In this document: positions 2,169 to 21,589 of the stretch, piece by piece
Layout: each line of letters begins with the position of its first letter
Numbering within the stretch: the first letter of the stretch is position 1
Assembly (NCBI GenBank): GCA_965238005.1
Contig: OZ250165.1
Span: forward strand, 3,936,001 to 4,000,000
DNA length: 64,000 nt
Direction of reading: 5' to 3'
Source: Longimicrobiales bacterium
GTDB lineage: Bacteria > Gemmatimonadota > Gemmatimonadetes > Longimicrobiales > Gaopeijiaceae
Program-made: the position numbers and the translations under genes
The notes under the pieces: model-generated
Databases searched by the model: none
Told to the model about the DNA's origin: nothing
Seen by the model: only the letters and a program-made list of their open reading frames with translations

Positions 2169-3107
2169 ATGTCGGGGAAGTTCGTAGAAGCTGAATTCAT
2201 ATGGCGAGATGGGGAGTTTATCCGTTGGGAGGACGCCACGGTCCATCTCTTGAGCACGGCGGTCCAGTTCGGGACCTCCATGTTCGAGGGCATTCGATGC
2301 TACGACACGCCCAAGGGGCCCTGCGTCTTCAGGCTGGACGCACACATCCTGAGGCTCGTCCACTCGTGTAGGATCTACCGGATGGAGCCGTCGTACTCCG
2401 AGCAGGAGCTCATCGATGCGTGCCGAGCCACGGTCGAGCGCAACGGGCTCAAGGACTGCTACATCCGGCCAATGGTCCTGCGGGGATACGGATCGGCCGG
2501 CCTGGATCCCTCCCAGAGCCCGATCGAGACGTACGTCACCGCGTGGCCGTGGGGCGCCTACCTGGGTGAAGGAGCTCTCGAGAACGGCGTCGACGTCGGC
2601 GTCTCATCGTGGAACCGGCCGGCGCCCAACACCTTCCCGGTCCAGGCCAAGGCCGCTGGGCACTACAACAACGCCCAGCTCGTCAAGATGGAGGCTGTCG
2701 CCAACGGCTATGCGGAAGGGCTGGTGTTGTCGCCCGACGGTCGTCTGAGCGAAGGCGGCGGACAGAACGTGTTCCTGGTGCGGGGTGGAATCCTGGTGAC
2801 GCCCGAGCTCGACGGAACGCTTCTGCGGGGAGTCACCCGGGACGCGGTCATGGTCATGGCCGCCGACCTCCGCCTGGAGGTGCAGGAACGACCCGTCCCC
2901 CGCGAGGATCTCTACACGGCCGACGAGCTGTTCTTCACGGGCACCGCCACCGAGGTCACGCCCATCCGGAGCGTGGACCGCATCACCATCGGTGAGGGGC
3001 GGGCGGGTCCGGTTACCCGCGCTGTCCAGAACCACTTCATGGCGGTCGTCAAGGCTGAGGAGGAGGACTTACACGGGTGGCTCACACCCGTGTGCCAGGG
3101 CGGCTGA
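2169..3107 (+). CDS. ilvE: Branched-chain amino acid aminotransferase (class IV PLP enzyme)
   Basis: FEGIRCY, YIRP, AKAAGHY (PLP Lys), EGGGQNVF, LRGVTRD, ADELFFTGTATEVTP. Confidence 0.9.
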   Translation: MSGKFVEAEFIWRDGEFIRWEDATVHLLSTAVQFGTSMFEGIRCYDTPKGPCVFRLDAHILRLVHSCRIYRMEPSYSEQELIDACRATVERNGLKDCYIRPMVLRGYGSAGLDPSQSPIETYVTAWPWGAYLGEGALENGVDVGVSSWNRPAPNTFPVQAKAAGHYNNAQLVKMEAVANGYAEGLVLSPDGRLSEGGGQNVFLVRGGILVTPELDGTLLRGVTRDAVMVMAADLRLEVQERPVPREDLYTADELFFTGTATEVTPIRSVDRITIGEGRAGPVTRAVQNHFMAVVKAEEEDLHGWLTPVCQGG

Positions 3108-3126
3108 CCGCCCCTTTCCGGGGCGG
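3108..3126. terminator. GC-rich hairpin between convergent ilvE and ggt
   Basis: CCGCCCC-TTTCC-GGGGCGG directly after the ilvE stop. Confidence 0.45.
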
Positions 3127-3184
3127 CTGACCCTGCGCGGTCGGTCCCTCGCCGACGGCCGCCCGCCCCGGCCTCGAGGGGCGG

Positions 3185-4930
3185 TCAGTTCCCCACCGCC
3201 CCCGCGTCGACATTCCTGGGATCGGCGGCCCCCAGGCGGTCACCGTTCTCGGGATCGATCATGATGGAGTGGGCGAGGCCCTGCCCTCCCTGGACCGACA
3301 GCGTGTAGCCCCGCCGCTCGAGCTCGGCGACCGTGGCTGGGGGCAGCCCATCCCGCTCGAAGCGGACGTTGTCCGGTAGCCACTGGTGGTGTAGCCGAGG
3401 CGCGTTGACGGCCTCCTGGATGTTCATCTCGAACTCGACGAAGTTCAGGATCACCTGCATTACGGTGTTGATGATCGTCCGGCCTCCCGGGCTCCCCACC
3501 ACCGCAACCAGCTCTCCGTCCTTGGTCACGATGCTCGGCGTCATGCTGGAGAGCATGCGCTGCTCCGGACGCGCGAGATTCGGCCGGGTACCGATGAGCC
3601 CACCGTCGTCGGTGAGGCCGGGCCCCGCGTTGAAGTCGCCCATCTCGTTGTTGAGCAGAAAGCCCGCCCCGGGAACGGTGATCGCAGAGCCGTAGCCGGA
3701 CTCGAGGGTGTAGGTGACGGAGACCGCCATGCCGTTCCGGTCCACCACGGAGTAGTGCGTGGTCTCGGGGCTCTCGTAGGGCTCCGTGACGTCCGACGGC
3801 GCCGACACGCTAGCGTTGAGCGGGTCGATGTCGGCACGGAGGTGTTCGGCATATGCCTTGCTGGTCAGCCGGTGGACAGGCACGTCCACGAAGTCGACGT
3901 CGGCGACGAAACGGGCCCGGTCCCGGTAGGCTCTCCGCATGGCCTCCGTCAGGTGGTGGATGTAGTCCGCCGAGTTGTGACCCATGGAGGCGAGGTCGTA
4001 GCCCTCGAGGATGTTGAGCATCTCAACCATGGCGACGCCCCCGCTGGACGGAGGCGGCATGGAGATGATGTCGTAGCCTCGGTACGTGCCCTTGATGGGG
4101 GTACGCTCCTTGGCCTGGTAGCGGGCGAGATCCTCCAGGGTGATGATGCCGCCGCCGCGCTCCATCTCCGCCGCCAGCAGGCTGGCGGTCTCTCCCTTAT
4201 AGAACCCGTCGCGCCCGTCGTTGGTGATGCGCTCCAGGGTCCGCGCCAGGTCGGTTTGCACGAGCCGGTAGCCGGGCTCGAAGGGACGGCCGTCCATGGA
4301 GAACGACGCCACGGTGCCCACATAGGCGGCCCCCCGGCCTTCCACGAGACGCTGCAGCCCCCGAGCCAGCCGCTCGGCGATCTCGAAGCCGTCGCGGGCC
4401 AGGCCCACTGCCGGGCTCACCAGCCGCCGCCACTCCTGACCGCCGTACAGCCGGTGCGCCTTCCAGAATCCGGCTACGGTGCCGGGAACGCCCACGGCCA
4501 TGTGGCTGTTGTGATGCTTGGTGCGCGAATACTCGCCGGACTCGTCGAGCCACATCTCGGGGTGGGACGCCAGCGGCGCCTTCTCCCGGAAGTCGAGGGC
4601 CGTGGTGGCCCCGTCGGAGAAGCGGATCACCATGAAGCCGCCGCCGCCGATGTTGCCGGCCGACGGATGCGTGACGGCCAGCGCGAGGCCCGTTGCGATG
4701 GCCGCGTCCACGGCGTTGCCACCGGCAGCCAGCACGTCGGCGCCCGCCTTGCTGGCGTGTACGCTCTCGGACACCACCATGCCATGGGGCGCCCGAACGG
4801 GCTGAACCGTGTCGGCCTGGACGCTCGTCGGAGCGAGCGGGGCGAGGGACTGGGGGGCGGTAAGTCCCGTCGTACCCAGCCACAGTACGGCCAAGGTCGA
4901 GAACGTGAAGAAATGACGGCGGTCGATCAT
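3185..4930 (-). CDS. ggt: Gamma-glutamyltransferase
   Basis: GGNAVDAA, GNIGGGGFM, DFREKAP, ETTHYSVVD (autoproteolytic Thr), LNNEMGDF, SSMTP, GSPGG; N-terminal signal peptide. Confidence 0.95.
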   Translation of the reverse strand: MIDRRHFFTFSTLAVLWLGTTGLTAPQSLAPLAPTSVQADTVQPVRAPHGMVVSESVHASKAGADVLAAGGNAVDAAIATGLALAVTHPSAGNIGGGGFMVIRFSDGATTALDFREKAPLASHPEMWLDESGEYSRTKHHNSHMAVGVPGTVAGFWKAHRLYGGQEWRRLVSPAVGLARDGFEIAERLARGLQRLVEGRGAAYVGTVASFSMDGRPFEPGYRLVQTDLARTLERITNDGRDGFYKGETASLLAAEMERGGGIITLEDLARYQAKERTPIKGTYRGYDIISMPPPSSGGVAMVEMLNILEGYDLASMGHNSADYIHHLTEAMRRAYRDRARFVADVDFVDVPVHRLTSKAYAEHLRADIDPLNASVSAPSDVTEPYESPETTHYSVVDRNGMAVSVTYTLESGYGSAITVPGAGFLLNNEMGDFNAGPGLTDDGGLIGTRPNLARPEQRMLSSMTPSIVTKDGELVAVVGSPGGRTIINTVMQVILNFVEFEMNIQEAVNAPRLHHQWLPDNVRFERDGLPPATVAELERRGYTLSVQGGQGLAHSIMIDPENGDRLGAADPRNVDAGAVGN

Positions 4931-15744: not shown

Positions 15745-17444
15745 CTAGAGCTCCAGCGCTCGCACCTTCCGCACTCCGGCCCTGAGGGGAAGGGCAATGG
15801 AGATGGCTGTCAAAACGAGGGCGCCCGAGGCCCCCAAGACGAGGGGCAGGATCCCCGCCGACCCGCCCTCCGCCTGGAAGCGAACCAGCAGGAGGCGGTC
15901 AACGGGCCACGCAAGGAGGACCACGATACCGGTCAGGTAGCTGACAGCCGCCATCATGAACATGAGACCCCCGAACGACGTGGGAATCTCGGCCATGTTG
16001 TCGGTGTCGTAGTTCGGATAGAGGGCCCCGAACCCGAGGGCCAGAGCCGTCATGGCCAGGGTGATGCCGATCATGGCCACGGTGGTGATCACCAGGATCA
16101 GCGTCGTCGCCTCGAGGATGATGTTCGTGATCACGATGAGGGGGAGAGCCACAAGAAGAAGGGGGATGGTTCCCACCCAGTACTTCGTCAGGAACAGGGT
16201 ACGTATATCGATGGGCGACGACCTCAACAGCCACGCCATCCTACCTTCCAGGGAAATACCCGGGAATACGAACCGGGCAGCGATGGCGGCAACCACGAAT
16301 CCCGCGAGCCCCAGGTTCAGGAAGGAAACGGCGTTGATGAGGAAGAAGGAGACCTGCTCACCGGTGTAGAGCGGGAGCACCTTGATGTTGTAGACGTACA
16401 CCACCACCAGGACGCCCAAGAGTATCAGCTGCGACCACTGAGTAGCGTCCGGAAGAAGACCCGGATCTCCTTGGTCACGAGCTGGCGGGTCGCGGGAGCG
16501 GTCCAGGCGAAGCACCTCTCCAGCTTGGTCGTCCGGACCCGGCCCTCCTTGCGCTCGGCACCCTCCTGGGCCCGGGTGAATCCCGACCGAAAGAAGCGAT
16601 GGTGGAGCCAGGCGCCCCCTACGAAGACGGCCGCGGCCGTGCTCCACAGGAACCAGAACGGGAACGGATCGAACACCCCGTTGAGGTGGGACATGAGCGT
16701 GCCCGCTACCCACTCGTTGGGGAGCCAGGGAGACGTCGGCGACCTCAGCACTGCCATGAAGTCCACCAGGTCGCGGAACTCCTCAGGACTCACGAGGCGC
16801 TCCGGCCGGAGGAACCGGAAGAGGACCACCACGCCCGCCGCAGCAAAAAGCCCGATGAGAGCCAGGAGCTCTCTGGTGCGCCGGGCCGGGAACACGTTCA
16901 CGAGCATGAGCGTGAAAGCCGTCCCGAGAACGGCTGGAATCACCAGGTACGGGATCAGGGTGACGACGGCGAGACCATAGAAGGACCATCCGGCTCCGTA
17001 CACCATTCCGTAGGCCGCCAGGAGCGGAATCGCAAGGAGCGCCACCATCCAAGAGGAGTCCACGATCGTCTCCACGAGCCGGGCCCCGTAGAGCTTCACG
17101 GAGTCCACGGGCGAAGCCACGAGGAGCTCCATGTCCCTCGAGAGGAAGTACGTGGAGAGCGCGGTGATGACGTTGGAGAGGAGTAGGATCATCAGGAAGG
17201 TCAGCAGCGCAAGCCCGAGCAGCTTCCCCGCCAGCAGGTCGCCGATGCCCTGGGTTCCCCGGAAGTACAGCAGCATCCGGAAGATGACCCCGAAGATGAA
17301 CGACCAGAAGAACAGCCCGACGAAGGCGAGCACGCCCCACTTGAAGAGGCGTCCCTCCTCGCTCTTGGTCCGGTGGAGCTTCGACCGGATCTTCGGCCAG
17401 AGCAGCCAGAGGATCCCGGGCCCGCCGAAAGTGGCGCCGTTCAC
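15745..17444 (-). pseudogene. ABC-2 type exporter permease with 1-nt frameshift near 16450
   Basis: N-half (GTG 17444, ..KEIRVFFR) and C-half (DATQWSQLILL..SLEGRMAWLLRSSP) lie in different frames; TTC TTC CGG ACG is one base short of CGx GAC. Confidence 0.8.
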
Positions 17445-17447
17445 TAG

Positions 17448-17625
17448 TGTTCCGTTTCCGAGGTTCGCGAGCCACCAAGAGGGCCGGGACGCCGTGGGAT
17501 CAAGGCGGGACGACCCGGCGTAGCGCAAGCGGGCACCGCGCGAAGCGTGGTCGTAAGGAGTTCCAACGCCGAGCCCACGGATGCACCGCGCCCTCGACTG
17601 GCCGAGACACTTTGGTAACGGGACA
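17448..17625. mobile_element. 178-bp MITE copy 1 flanked by CTAG duplication
   Basis: CTAG|TGTTCCGTTTCCGA...TTGGTAACGGGACA|CTAG imperfect TIRs; about 13 mismatches (ungapped, counted by eye) to 29677-29854. Confidence 0.85.
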
Positions 17626-17630
17626 CTAGA

Positions 17631-18371
17631 CTAGCTGGTCTCCTGAAGGCTGGCCACCACGTCCGCCATGTCCTCGTCCCCGGTGACCTTGAGGAAGATC
17701 TCTTCGAGGTGGGCCTCGCCGGAGTCGACCTGCCCGCGAAGATCCTCCATAGTGCCCTTCGCGATGATGTCGCCGTCACGGATGATGGCGATGCGGTCGC
17801 ACACGGCCTCTACAACCTCGAGGGTGTGGCTCGACAGAAAGACCGTCCCTCCCCGGTTCGCGAAGGCCCGGAACAGATCCTTCAGAATTCTGGCAGACCG
17901 GGGATCGAGGCCCACCATGGGCTCATCCACCACGATGAGCTCGGGTTGATGGATCAGAGCCGAGGTGATGAGGAGCTTCTGGCGCATCCCGTGGGAGTAG
18001 CTCTCGATGAGCTCGTCCTTCCATTCGGTGAGGCTGAAGATCTCGAGGAGTCCGTTCGCCCGTTCTTCCGACGCGTGCTCGTCCTTGCCCCAGAGGCCCG
18101 CCACAAAGCGCAGGAACTCACCTCCCGAGAGCTTTTCGTAGAGGTAGGGCCGGTCGGGGATGTATCCGATGCGGGACTTGGCGTGGACGGGATGGACCTC
18201 CAGGTTGTTCCCTCCGATGAGGATCGTGCCCTCAGTCGGCTCGAGCACACCGGCCACCATCCGAATCGTGGTCGTCTTTCCGGCACCGTTGGGACCGAGG
18301 AATCCGAAGATCTCGCCCCGGGGCACCGTGAGGTCGATGCCGTTGACGGCGGTGAAGCCCCCATAACGTTT
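17631..18371 (-). pseudogene. ABC transporter ATP-binding protein, 3' part (split by IS1595)
   Basis: KRYGGFTAVNGIDL..GPNGAGKTT, YSHGMRQK, VDEP, SSH; the 5' part lies at 21325-21449. Confidence 0.9.
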
Positions 18372-18389
18372 GGGTATTATATACTAGAC

Positions 18390-18417
18390 TTGACTTTTGG
18401 GCTAATCATGGTATCTT
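18390..18417 (+). promoter_or_regulatory. Sigma70-type promoter of the transposase
   Basis: TTGACT-N16-TATCTT with extended -10 TG; the -35 overlaps the left TIR; AGGAGG RBS at 18444. Confidence 0.6.
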
Positions 18418-18453
18418 CTAAGTACAGCAAATCGTTGCCGCTTAGGAGGATAC

Positions 18454-19392
18454 ATGGCTCACAAGGCACCCGGCAAGGCGTACCGCGAGGGGATCACTCT
18501 CTTGCAGCTGGCAGACCTATTCCCGACCGAGGAATCGGCGGTGGGTTGGTTCGAGGGTGTGGTCTGGTCTGGCGAGCGGGCTTGCGGGCATTGCGGCTCT
18601 CTCGACACGTACGGTATCAAGAGCGGCAAGCCCATGCCGTATCGGTGCCGCGACTGCAAGCGGTACTTCAGCGTGAAGACGGGAACGCTCATGGCGTCGT
18701 CGCCTCTTCCCGTCCGCAAGTGGGTTTACGCGATCTATCTGGACGTGACGAGCCTCAAGGGTGTTGCGTCGATGAAACTGCACAGGGACCTAGGCGTCAC
18801 ACAGAAGACCGCTTGGTTCATGCAGCAGCGCATCCGCGAAGCGTTCCGTGCGGAAGGCCCCATGGTCTTCGCCGGGCCGGTCGAAGTGGACGAAACCTAT
18901 TTCGGCGGTCGGGAGAAGAACAAGCACGCGTCCAAGAAGCTGAGGGCTGGCCGTGGTCCGGTGGGCAAGACGGCGGTGGTCGGCGCGAAGGATCGGGCCA
19001 CGAATCAAGTAGCGGCCCGGGTGGTCGAGGGCACGGACAAGAAGACGCTCCAAGGCTTTGTGAAGACTCACGCGGCCAAGGGCGCGAAGGTCTACACGGA
19101 CGATGCGAGCGCCTACGATGGCCTAGAGAACCGCGAGGCGGTGAAGCACTCGGTAGCCGAGTACGTAAGGGGCCAAGCCCACACGAACGGGGTGGAGTCC
19201 TTCTGGAGCATGCTGAAGCGGGCGCACAAGGGCACGTTCCACAAGCTGAGCGCGAAGCACCTACAGCGGTATGTAGACGAGTTCGCGGGCCGTCACAACA
19301 TCCGCGACCTGGATACGATCCGGCAGATGGAGCACGTAGTCGCGGCGATGGTCGGGCGGCGGCTCATGTACCGGGATCTGATCGCCGAATAG
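18454..19392 (+). CDS. IS1595-family DDE transposase
   Basis: Zn ribbon CGHC..CRDC, VEVDETY, VYTDD, HTNGVESFW, KHLQRYVDEF. Confidence 0.95.
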   Translation: MAHKAPGKAYREGITLLQLADLFPTEESAVGWFEGVVWSGERACGHCGSLDTYGIKSGKPMPYRCRDCKRYFSVKTGTLMASSPLPVRKWVYAIYLDVTSLKGVASMKLHRDLGVTQKTAWFMQQRIREAFRAEGPMVFAGPVEVDETYFGGREKNKHASKKLRAGRGPVGKTAVVGAKDRATNQVAARVVEGTDKKTLQGFVKTHAAKGAKVYTDDASAYDGLENREAVKHSVAEYVRGQAHTNGVESFWSMLKRAHKGTFHKLSAKHLQRYVDEFAGRHNIRDLDTIRQMEHVVAAMVGRRLMYRDLIAE

Positions 19393-19454
19393 CTCCCGAA
19401 GGATTGCGGGGCCAAGGAAAGAATTGCACCCTTCTCCCCCCGAAGGGGGGGTGC

Positions 19455-21143
19455 ATGAGTCTTCCAACCAATACGCTCTACTACGGCGACTGCTTGGAGT
19501 GGTTGCCTCAGTTCCCATCCGAGAGCGTAGACCTGATCTACCTCGATCCTCCGTTCAACTCCAATCAGAGCTACAACCTGCTATTTGGAAACGGACAGCC
19601 CAAACCCAACGGGAGCCGGAGTGCACAGGTACGGGCGTTCGACGATATGTGGCGGTGGGACGATGCGGCGGCAAAGCGTGTAGATCAGCTATCCCGTGCC
19701 CGCGCGCACCCGGCACATAAGGCCGTAGTGGGCTTGCGCGCGATGCTGGGAGAAAGCGGAATGCTGGCCTATCTGTCCTACATGGCAGAGCGGCTGGCCG
19801 AGATGCCCCGTGTCTTGAAGCCCACAGGCTCAATCTACCTACATTGCGACCCTACGGCATCCCACGGCCTCAAGTTAGTGATGGATTGTGTCTGGGGTCC
19901 CGCAGCGTTCCGTAATGAGATCGTGTGGCGACGATCAAACGCCCACAATAAGCTGACGCGACAATATGGGCCAATCCATGATGTGATACTGTTTTACGCC
20001 CATGACAAGGCTACGTTTCATCCCGGCTATACGCCATACACGCAGGCATACGTCCATGACTATTTCTGCCATTCGGATGAACGAGGACCATATCAATCAA
20101 ACGTGTTGACGGGGCAGGGAGTTCGAAAGGGTGAGAGCGGGGAACCTTGGCGGGGGTACGATCCGACAGCAAGGGGACGGCATTGGGCAATCCCCAGGTC
20201 TCTAAAAGATGAGTTACCGGCTGAACAGCAGTCATTGGGACCCCTTAGACTGCTGGATATTTTAGCTTCCTCGAATGAGATAGTGTTTTCGCGAAACGGT
20301 GTGCCTCGTTACAAGCAACGCCGAGGACCGGGGGTTCTGTGCCAAGACATTTGGGCGTATCAGCCTGGTACCAAGGGGGTCCTATACAACGACGATGCTG
20401 AAATCGACCGTGATGTGAAGTGGTTGGATTCCGAAACCGAACGTCTCGGATATCCGACGCAAAAGCCGCTAGGGTTGTTGCAGCGGATCATGGAGGCTTC
20501 GAGCCGTCCTGGGGATATCGTACTGGACCCGTTCTGCGGCTGCGGCACGGCAGTAGTGGCGGCGCACAAGCTCAACAGACAGTGGGTGGGAATCGACATT
20601 TCGCCGTTCGCCATCGATCTGATTTGTAACCAAAGACTCCCAGAATATAAGGTTAAGACTGAGGGATATCCGTATGATTTATCCGGCGCTCGCAAGCTCG
20701 CCCGCGAAAAGCCATTCAAGTTTGAGAAATGGGCTGTGACCCGGATTCCAGGCCTTGCGCCGAATGACAAACAGGTAGGCGACGACGGCATAGACGGTGT
20801 CGGATACCTGTTGGCCAAGCCGGAGGACACAACCGATCAGGTGCTCGCGCAAGTCAAAGGTGGGAAATATCAGTTAGGGCAGTTGCGCGACTTTCTAGGC
20901 GTCATGGAACGGGAACAGGCCGCCATAGGCTTGTATACCACCGTTGAGCCGATCCGAGCGGCAGGAGCACGGACAGAGGCAACCCACAGGGGCTTCCTCA
21001 CGTTGGGCGCGTCGCAATATCCACGAGCCCAGCTGTGGTCGATTCAAGATTACTTCGACAACCGGATGCCGCTGCTGCCCGCGCTGGCCGATCCCTACAC
21101 CGGAAAGCCCGTGCAGGGCTCGCTGCAAATGTCTCTGTCCTAA
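19455..21143 (+). CDS. Beta-class N4/N6 DNA methyltransferase fused to C-terminal Mrr-like nuclease domain (562 aa)
   Basis: LYYGDCL, IYLDPPFN (motif IV), GYPTQKP, VLDPFCGCGT (motif I), then FEKWA..DDGIDG..LAQVKGG; visibly lower GC than flanks. Confidence 0.88.
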   Translation: MSLPTNTLYYGDCLEWLPQFPSESVDLIYLDPPFNSNQSYNLLFGNGQPKPNGSRSAQVRAFDDMWRWDDAAAKRVDQLSRARAHPAHKAVVGLRAMLGESGMLAYLSYMAERLAEMPRVLKPTGSIYLHCDPTASHGLKLVMDCVWGPAAFRNEIVWRRSNAHNKLTRQYGPIHDVILFYAHDKATFHPGYTPYTQAYVHDYFCHSDERGPYQSNVLTGQGVRKGESGEPWRGYDPTARGRHWAIPRSLKDELPAEQQSLGPLRLLDILASSNEIVFSRNGVPRYKQRRGPGVLCQDIWAYQPGTKGVLYNDDAEIDRDVKWLDSETERLGYPTQKPLGLLQRIMEASSRPGDIVLDPFCGCGTAVVAAHKLNRQWVGIDISPFAIDLICNQRLPEYKVKTEGYPYDLSGARKLAREKPFKFEKWAVTRIPGLAPNDKQVGDDGIDGVGYLLAKPEDTTDQVLAQVKGGKYQLGQLRDFLGVMEREQAAIGLYTTVEPIRAAGARTEATHRGFLTLGASQYPRAQLWSIQDYFDNRMPLLPALADPYTGKPVQGSLQMSLS

Positions 21144-21155
21144 GGAAACGAGCCG

Positions 21156-21311
21156 ATGAGCGAGAAGCGGAAGCCGTACAAGAAGGGGTTAAAGGCCGAC
21201 TATCGGGGTGCGAAGCCGGAGCAGGTAGCCGAGGCGCTACATCGGCACCGTCCCGATAAGGTGGAGCAGCGGGACGCCAAGGCCGGGAAGCCTCCGGGCA
21301 AATCAAGTTAG
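21156..21311 (+). CDS. 51-aa basic ORF at right end of the IS
   Basis: AAGGA RBS; MSEKRKPYKKGLKADYRGAKPEQVAEALHRHRPDKVEQRDAKAGKPPGKSS*; the stop lies within the right TIR. Confidence 0.5.
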   Translation: MSEKRKPYKKGLKADYRGAKPEQVAEALHRHRPDKVEQRDAKAGKPPGKSS

Positions 21312-21324
21312 GTATATAATCCCC

Positions 21325-21449
21325 TAACGTTTCACGACTCCCTCGAGCTGGAGCATTTCCGGGGTCGCGTCTTCCCCCGGCCCCACACCGTCCATGAGTT
21401 GGGCGAGGCGGGCCTCGAGGCCGGAGCTTGTTCGGGGGACTTCGGTCAT
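21325..21449 (-). pseudogene. ABC ATP-binding protein, 5' part (split by IS1595)
   Basis: MTEVP..EMLQLEGVVKR rejoins YGGFTAV in frame once the IS and one TSD copy are removed. Confidence 0.85.
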
Positions 21450-21516
21450 TGAGAATCCTCTGGAAGGTTGTCGTACATCGTTAGCGATCAGCCGCAGCCC
21501 GTCGCTCGGCCAGGCC

Positions 21517-21589
21517 CTAGGGAGGCCCACCAGACTGGTGCAGAGGCTCGCTAGGGGAGACTCACCAGACTTTTGCAGAGGCTAGCTAG
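21517..21589. repeat. Imperfect ~35-bp tandem duplication delimited by CTAG
   Basis: CTAGGGAGGCCCACCAGACTGGTGCAGAGGCTCG / CTAGGGGAGACTCACCAGACTTTTGCAGAGGCTAG / CTAG. Confidence 0.6.

Follow-up and report, generated by a model that had tools for sequence, protein, structure and literature searches.

How does a DNA methyltransferase gene come to lie within the gene for an ABC transporter ATPase, and what would it do there? We address this question in a 64-kb window, the whole stretch of 64,000 nucleotides from positions 3,936,001 to 4,000,000 of contig OZ250165.1 from a Longimicrobiales bacterium (assembly GCA_965238005.1). At 18372-21324 of the window lies an insertion sequence (IS) element of the IS1595 family. 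The element proper is 2,953 bp long and holds three co-oriented open reading frames (ORFs) inside its terminal inverted repeats (TIRs), which encode a transposase, a DNA methyltransferase (hereafter methylase) with a C-terminal Mrr-type domain, and a small protein; nothing else was found within the repeats. We regard it as nearly certain that this is a real transporter IS, an IS that carries a passenger. As the best explanation of the locus as a whole we favour, with moderate confidence, an autonomous transporter IS that recently jumped into the ABC ATPase gene and carries a one-gene cargo.

An IS1595-family element interrupts an ABC transporter ATPase gene

The two ends of the element, a left TIR at 18372-18393 (plus strand, GGGTATTATATAC...CTTGA) and a right TIR at 21303-21324 (minus strand), pair at 18 of 22 bases and form the longest of the 141 inverted pairs in 18200-21500 (32 nt, 81%). 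Their pattern, GGGnATTATA...CTTGAC, is also found at the ends of sibling elements. Outside the repeats stands a perfect 8-bp target-site duplication (TSD), TAACGTTT, with a left copy at 18364-18371 and a right copy at 21325-21332; on both strands of the window this octamer occurs at these two places only, and congeners have it once, at the empty site. The transposase gene (18454-19392, plus strand) is intact and encodes 312 aa with a zinc ribbon and a DDE domain. It matches PF12762 (DDE_Tnp_IS1595, 1.6e-40) and the zinc ribbon PF12760 (7e-07), both beyond their cut-offs, and the NCBIfam model transpos_IS1595 (NF033547) at 188 bits against a cut-off of 75; none of 12 relatives departs from it at D146, D216 or the HTNGxESFW...KR block. 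The G+C content is 0.54-0.56 over 19800-21000, in the methylase stretch, versus 0.62-0.69 in the flanks, and 0.584 for the element versus 0.648 for the genome. Thus the initial annotation of this DNA, which had described 22-bp TIRs, a perfect 8-bp TSD, an intact DDE transposase and a passenger richer in A+T than its surroundings, holds in each of these respects, with the proviso that the TIRs are imperfect.

The interrupted gene runs on the minus strand. Its downstream, C-terminal part (17631-18371) matches PF00005 (ABC_tran, 1.8e-27), and its upstream, N-terminal part (21325-21449, start codon uncertain) runs on into the other part without a break in congeners. Deleting 18372-21332 in silico yields one open minus-strand frame of 329 codons that reads ...LEGVVKRYGGFTAVNG..GPNGAGKTT.. 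(Walker A), the exact restoration of an ABC ATPase frame that had been claimed for excision. The corresponding empty site exists in nature: in both of the same-genus genomes (G001 and G002) the flanks, 96-100% identical, meet without a gap and have exactly 8 bp in common, and a 755-nt contig of a metagenome study (X5, record 25, ~96% alike) joins 18363 to 21325. Other metagenome contigs carry the element. One of 165 nt, from another study (X1, record 2), runs across the left junction without a single mismatch, and one of 1,777 nt from a third study (X2) agrees with it at every position of 19532-21308; the right junction is bridged by none of the metagenome contigs listed. A further contig (X4, side 30) has a joint from 19385 to 21156, a hint of a cargo-less form that was too weak to be used. 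The whole element is present in one copy in the 4.84-Mb genome. The methylase was found in neither of the two congeners, and the closest match to it that 60 relatives offer has 47% identity. The perfect TSD, three intact ORFs, single copy and empty sites support a recent insertion, as the initial annotation had proposed.

A promoter-like site at 18390-18417 (plus strand, 9 of 12 positions, TG-extended) places its -35 hexamer, TTGACT, within the left repeat and is a candidate transposase promoter. One such site was found where 1.3 were expected from shuffled sequence, so the count is not above chance; relatives retain TTGAC in their own repeats. A search of sequencing runs listed none of RNA. 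A terminator scan of the element region found none, and the predicted RNA fold of the transposase-methylase spacer is unremarkable (z -0.93).

The cargo joins a beta-class methylase to a predicted nuclease domain

The methylase gene (19455-21143, plus strand) encodes 562 aa and matches PF01555 (N6_N4_Mtase) at 6e-40. Motif IV (DPPF, residues 31-34) precedes motif I (DPFCGCG, residues 358-364) with the recognition region between them, and this order places the enzyme in the beta class. In an alignment of 57 sequences no change is seen at D31, P32, F34 or D358-P-F-C-G-C-G364. The AlphaFold model of the whole protein has a pLDDT of 86.5, and a Foldseek search with it returned a list filled by methylases, in which the best solved matches are Type III Mod subunits, M.MboIIA, CcrM and M.BceJIV. 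From the DPPF motif and these nearest solved enzymes, most of which make N6-methyladenine, the base modified is probably adenine at N6. We consider the methylase likely to be active. PADLOC assigned only generic methylase models to the cargo.

The target-recognition region (residues 161-325; 19935-20429, plus strand) differs among close homologues far more than the sequence on either side of it. In 13 of the 21 closest homologues compared it is 26-40% identical, against 76-90% in residues 1-160 and 74-92% in residues 401-555. The recognition region is thus exchanged on a conserved methylase-plus-nuclease scaffold, and these swaps offer a natural series for mapping the segment that sets the motif.

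The C-terminal domain (residues ~401-555; 20655-21119, plus strand) belongs to the same polypeptide and carries E424, D443, D447 and Q466-V-K468. With the whole protein, Mrr_cat (PF04471) scores 18.2 bits, under its cut-off of 21, and with the domain alone 21.1 bits, barely over it; across the family it matches all 67 homologous domains at E <= 0.01, the best at 2.4e-11. D443, D447 and V467 are invariant in these 67 sequences, and K468 is at least 90% conserved. When the last 165 residues were modelled alone (pLDDT 89.6) and compared with solved structures by VIA-align, the list was led by the Mrr-type nuclease domains of LlaBIII (Z 8.7), MspJI (8.6), AF1548 (8.4) and AspBHI (8.4), with FokI (7.7) and R.BspD6I also among the matches, and the top 19 rows, judged from their titles, are all nuclease domains of the PD-(D/E)xK fold. 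A profile of the domain gave chance-level matches only among Protein Data Bank sequences. The domain is therefore of the Mrr-type PD-(D/E)xK fold by structure and by Mrr_cat, and the initial call of a 562-aa beta-class methylase ending in an Mrr-like domain with a D..QxK motif (here D447 and Q466-V-K468) agrees with what was found. That the nuclease domain is active we hold to be a shade under an even chance.

Sibling elements carry different DNA in the same slot

The segment between the transposase stop and the small ORF (19393-21155, plus strand) varies between siblings, and we refer to it as the cargo slot. A tblastn search found 11 further IS1595-type transposase places in the genome. Delimiting siblings by terminal repeats and perfect 8-bp duplications gave eight copies: the studied element; element B, 2,172 bp, in two identical copies (4807683-4809854 and 415771-417942; L002:1467-3638); C (3749282-3751583); D (1728773-1731335); two of the three copies of E (2048003-2049814 and 2348692-2350503); and F (2695-4904). 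The IS1595-family elements of the genome are thus of at least six kinds, and since those delimited are all 1.8-3.0 kb long, each has 0.9-2 kb beyond its transposase.

Element B, whose transposase is 72% identical, is collinear with the studied element from the left repeat through the transposase stop. Its slot then holds two minus-strand ORFs (93 and 124 aa) with no match in Pfam, NCBIfam or PADLOC, followed by a homologous small ORF of 61 aa. The closest relative of the backbone is a degraded copy in genome G005, with 88.6% DNA identity over element positions 300-1008 and 75.8% over 2772-2953, separated by ~720 bp of unrelated DNA; homology breaks off 13 bases short of the stop codon of the transposase and returns at that of the methylase (position 2772). 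In genome G007, four copies of 1,456-1,458 bp consist of the transposase and the small ORF alone. These minimal relatives, together with the different cargo in element B and G005, support the view, put forward in the initial annotation, that the slot is exchangeable: copies share their ends and differ in what lies inside. None of the 18 other cargo ORFs scanned (4 + 14) reaches a Pfam cut-off. Twenty elements have perfect 8-bp duplications (from the studied genome, G001, G002, G005 and G007, and three from other phyla). Their targets contain 49 G or C among 160 bases (31%, counted by hand), in genomes of 52-68% G+C.

The slot is closed by the small ORF (21156-21311, plus strand), which encodes 51 aa and has its stop codon in the right repeat. 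Homologues occur in 12 sibling elements, including the cargo-less ones of 1,456 bp. A profile of 13 copies recovers them as proteins of 45-75 aa with a basic start and the motif NPxY(R/K)GA..(S/P)(E/D).(V/I)..A(L/I)L..P; where the small ORF is co-oriented, its final codons and stop lie within the right repeat. Further copies are at L002:3448-3633, L027:1093-1299 (minus strand), L050:6685-6867 and L055:6542-6706. A search of 5.8 billion proteins returned at least 1,139 at E <= 0.01 among 2,688 candidates. Among the 120 matches listed none has a Pfam family, and the sole name is 'hypothetical protein'; in the ESM Atlas the best score is 0.80, to unnamed clusters. The small ORF itself has no Pfam or NCBIfam match, and PADLOC reported nothing for it or for the transposase. 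We regard it as belonging to the core of this IS clade, and a role as a regulator or end-binding helper is our guess.

Three loci depart from this layout. At L044:5208-5808, L045:5156-5815 and L048:2285-2904 the small ORF is inverted, convergent with the transposase, and accompanied by a gene for a protein of 123-144 aa whose start resembles a signal peptide, which suggests that the cargo-plus-small-ORF segment can flip. A sibling of 3,879 bp in G002 (L043:942-4820) has in its slot what looks, by eye, like a nested IS3-type insertion with minus-strand ORFs of 93 and 348 aa. In the studied genome, a transposase fragment lies at 2739211-2739594 (63% identical over residues 60-188), and 7 kb from it, at 2746304-2747017, is a distant PF01555-like methylase match (27%, residues 125-376).

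The methylase has paired with IS1595 elements more than once

More than 8,000 full-length relatives of the cargo were scored, many of which share its two-domain Pfam record and are named only 'site-specific DNA-methyltransferase'. From species-representative genomes we kept 79 homologue loci, and at six of them an IS1595 transposase lies within 5 kb of the homologue. At five of the six (L050, L055, L056, L087 and L122) the transposase is directly upstream of the methylase and co-oriented with it; at the sixth, L061, it is convergent, and an IS1595-type end lies ~65 bases before the methylase. L050, L055 and L122 are complete elements with 8-bp duplications, and the element at L056 spans its contig from repeat to repeat. 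The recurrence was given as four phyla, and the phyla named are Gemmatimonadota, Chloroflexota, Bacteroidota, Verrucomicrobiota and Pseudomonadota.

On the methylase tree, one clade with 100% support unites the studied element with L050, L055 and L056, all IS-borne, and with L051 and L059, where no transposase was found; L122, L087 and L061 fall elsewhere. The IS-borne label requires 5 changes on this tree; shuffled labels require 6.8 on average, and as few as 5 were reached in 6 of 500 shuffles. By this tree the association of the methylase family with IS1595 elements arose at least four times independently, and in one clade the two have stayed together across phyla. Within that clade, transposase and methylase identities to the studied element fall in the same order (67 and 63% for L050, 54 and 48% for L056, 52 and 46% for L055), which, with three pairs only, merely hints at co-descent. 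The sibling at L050:2306-6872, in another genome, also carries a methylase; its transposase is split by a nested insertion of ~1.5 kb with a 420-aa ORF (2841-4103), and the whole element keeps perfect 22-bp repeats and an 8-bp duplication.

No other gene accompanies the methylase with any regularity. The neighbour scan drew on 41 of the 79 loci and covered 71 flanking ORFs, which remained of the first 75 among 141 candidates once three known transposases and one short ORF had been set aside. Among these 71 there is no recurring partner, and ordinary, varied genes such as those for enolase, DNA ligase, PriA and ribonucleotide reductase make up the neighbourhood; nor is there a recurring helicase, the lone ResIII match being PriA. 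Transposase-less cassettes, defined by repeats matching at 15 or more of 18 positions plus a duplication of at least 7 of 8, surround methylase homologues at 0 of 59 loci, versus 1 of 54 in a displaced control. A metagenome scan with the methylase gave three loci only, at 44-45% identity, none with an adjacent transposase. Homologues with at least 80% coverage are found in eight plasmid records. A full-length homologue, including the Mrr-type domain, is carried by Streptomyces phage RedBear (L129, 34342-35976), where it adjoins a serine integrase.

A one-protein restriction-modification enzyme, an orphan methylase, or neither?

Judging from its family, the transposase would bind the GGGnATTATA...CTTGAC ends through its zinc-ribbon and DDE domains and insert the element into AT-rich 8-bp targets, and its promoter would probably take its -35 from the TTGAC inside the left repeat. 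The cargo would act alone, as a self-sufficient beta-class methyltransferase that resembles Type III Mod and probably modifies adenine at N6, with the swappable middle region setting the target motif. In a new host, a one-protein restriction-modification (RM) enzyme of this kind would methylate its motif throughout the genome, and the tethered nuclease would cut the motif where it is unmethylated. Such restriction would protect the host and at the same time make losing the element costly. Slightly, and tentatively, we prefer this reading of the cargo to that of an orphan methylase, because the predicted catalytic residues and the whole domain have been retained with the methylase core while specificity swaps. 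Exchange of recognition regions is typical of restriction enzymes, and PMC2853133 remarks on it for Type IIG.

Several observations weigh against an RM enzyme or against mobility of this copy. PF22722, which is named as an inactive restriction-endonuclease fold, matches 64 of the 67 domains, and across the family residue 466 can be Q, S or E, and residue 424 either E or Q. The structural Z scores near 8.5 are middling for that aligner, and Foldseek alone gave the domain an E value of 0.02 only. The homologue of plasmid pTL2A is directly preceded by another gene, which is annotated 'restriction endonuclease'. Temperate Streptomyces phages carry full-length solitary homologues beside an integrase (27 phage records with at least 80% coverage), and the usual reading of a solitary methylase borne by a phage is that of an anti-restriction methylase. 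Lastly, the element is single in its genome and the event documented is the insertion itself, so that transposition of the studied copy is something we infer.

Much of this evidence speaks for the closest competitor, in which the same transporter IS carries an orphan methyltransferase. Its Mrr-fold domain would not cut, serving instead in DNA binding, dimerisation or site choice, and methylation would shield the carrier DNA (chromosome, plasmid or phage) from restriction of the same specificity, or alter host expression. The solitary homologues on temperate phages and plasmids, the matches to the inactive-fold family and the variation at Q466 and E424 all fit such an enzyme. Yet D443, D447 and K468 are kept across phyla and are not obviously required for pure DNA binding, Mrr_cat matches every homologous domain, and recognition swapping on a conserved scaffold suits a diversifying defence better than regulation; we consider the orphan methylase a credible possibility that falls somewhat further below even. 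Dam methylation couples transposition of IS10 and IS50 to replication, and the methylase could likewise chiefly serve the element, through methylated sites in its ends or promoter. The recurrence of the pairing in four phyla, its having arisen more than once, and the co-oriented position directly after the transposase at five of the six other loci would accord with this. Most siblings of the IS clade, however, move without a methylase, a swapped recognition region would break any fixed site in the ends, and no target motif could be named, all of which make such service improbable. An assembly artefact or an immobile relic that mimics a fresh insertion is the least probable account, and we give it very little credence: the assembly is a single contig and no listed contig bridges its right junction, but the duplication is perfect, the exact empty site is present in two genomes, metagenome contigs match both the left junction and most of the cargo without a difference, and all three ORFs are intact.

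Relation to known systems

An IS1595 element that carries a passenger is of a kind already known. Transporter IS with passengers are established in this family by tISCpe8 and MTnSag1 in the part of PMC5704250 cited here, and the term tIS is in use, as the passage cited from PMC9330008 attests. As described in that part of PMC5704250, tISCpe8 and MTnSag1 resemble the studied element in having an IS1595-type DDE transposase, TIRs, a short TSD and passengers inside the repeats. They carry lincosamide-resistance genes, whereas the studied element carries a methylase-nuclease fusion, and, set against these two as there described, the conserved small ORF that ends in the right repeat is a feature of the studied clade. 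RM genes near IS are likewise on record: for RM systems and solitary methylase genes with IS elements on their flanks, PMC2853133 points to four references, one of which is the 2009 IS1595 paper. It also describes transposon-like RM units (Furuta, Abe and Kobayashi 2010, PMC2853133) that share with the studied element RM genes, imperfect inverted repeats, an 8-bp TSD and the empty site of a relative; unlike the studied element, which carries its own transposase, those units have no recognisable one in the text cited. Full-text literature searches, which did not cover Siguier et al. 2009, ISfinder or REBASE, returned no IS1595 element with a methylase-Mrr fusion and none with the small ORF.

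The enzyme itself has partial counterparts in several classes. Types IIG and IIC likewise place a methylase, a recognition region and a PD-(D/E)xK nuclease on a single chain and exchange the recognition region among relatives. The characterised Type IIG members (MmeI, BpuSI and Eco57I) have an N-terminal nuclease and a gamma-class methylase; the studied protein instead begins with a beta-class, Mod-like methylase and ends with the Mrr-type domain, whose cleavage is predicted only. Because of this beta-class N-terminal methylase and C-terminal nuclease fold, we do not file the protein as Type IIG and say only that it may work like one. Type III Mod subunits (EcoP15I Mod; 4zcf, 6k0w) give the best solved matches to the whole model (E 1e-16 to 2e-15) and share the beta-class core with an inserted recognition domain, but identity is 13-16%, and no gene for a Res helicase-nuclease is present in the element or recurs among the 71 neighbouring ORFs. 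Mrr, MspJI, AspBHI and LlaBIII (Type ISP) share the fold (Z 8.4-8.7), Mrr_cat and the D...QxK motif; in those enzymes its partner is either a module that reads modified DNA or a helicase-methylase. The substrate of Mrr and MspJI is modified DNA, and cutting it would be suicidal beside the protein's own methylase, so the logic of the studied cargo must differ from theirs.

What may be new is the class of enzyme, provided that it cuts DNA, and the conserved micro-protein with its slot. A bolder proposal is that the cargo represents a very large, uncharacterised class of one-protein RM enzymes on a modular IS1595 chassis, which would be the smallest self-mobile RM unit and a plug-in platform that also ferries many genes of unknown function; we think this unlikely. 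A 3-kb element with its own transposase is in any case one concrete route by which DNA-methylation or restriction genes pass between distant bacteria. If the fused domain cuts, thousands of genes now called 'site-specific DNA-methyltransferase' would be complete RM enzymes of undescribed build. The chassis of transposase, slot and micro-protein also marks out passenger genes of unknown function, and the mobility of these passengers suggests a role in conflicts between hosts and mobile DNA.

Neighbouring features

Downstream of the ATPase gene, at 15745-17528 of the window (minus strand), an ABC_tran_2 permease is represented by two overlapping ORFs in different frames, which cover profile positions 6-313 and 314-542. 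Decay after the insertion was ruled out as the source of this split: congener G001 (L019) shows the same split, which therefore predates the insertion. Upstream of the ATPase gene, at 21459-21586, contigs of three metagenome runs replace a 126-bp intergenic stretch with ~30 other letters, a strain-level indel.

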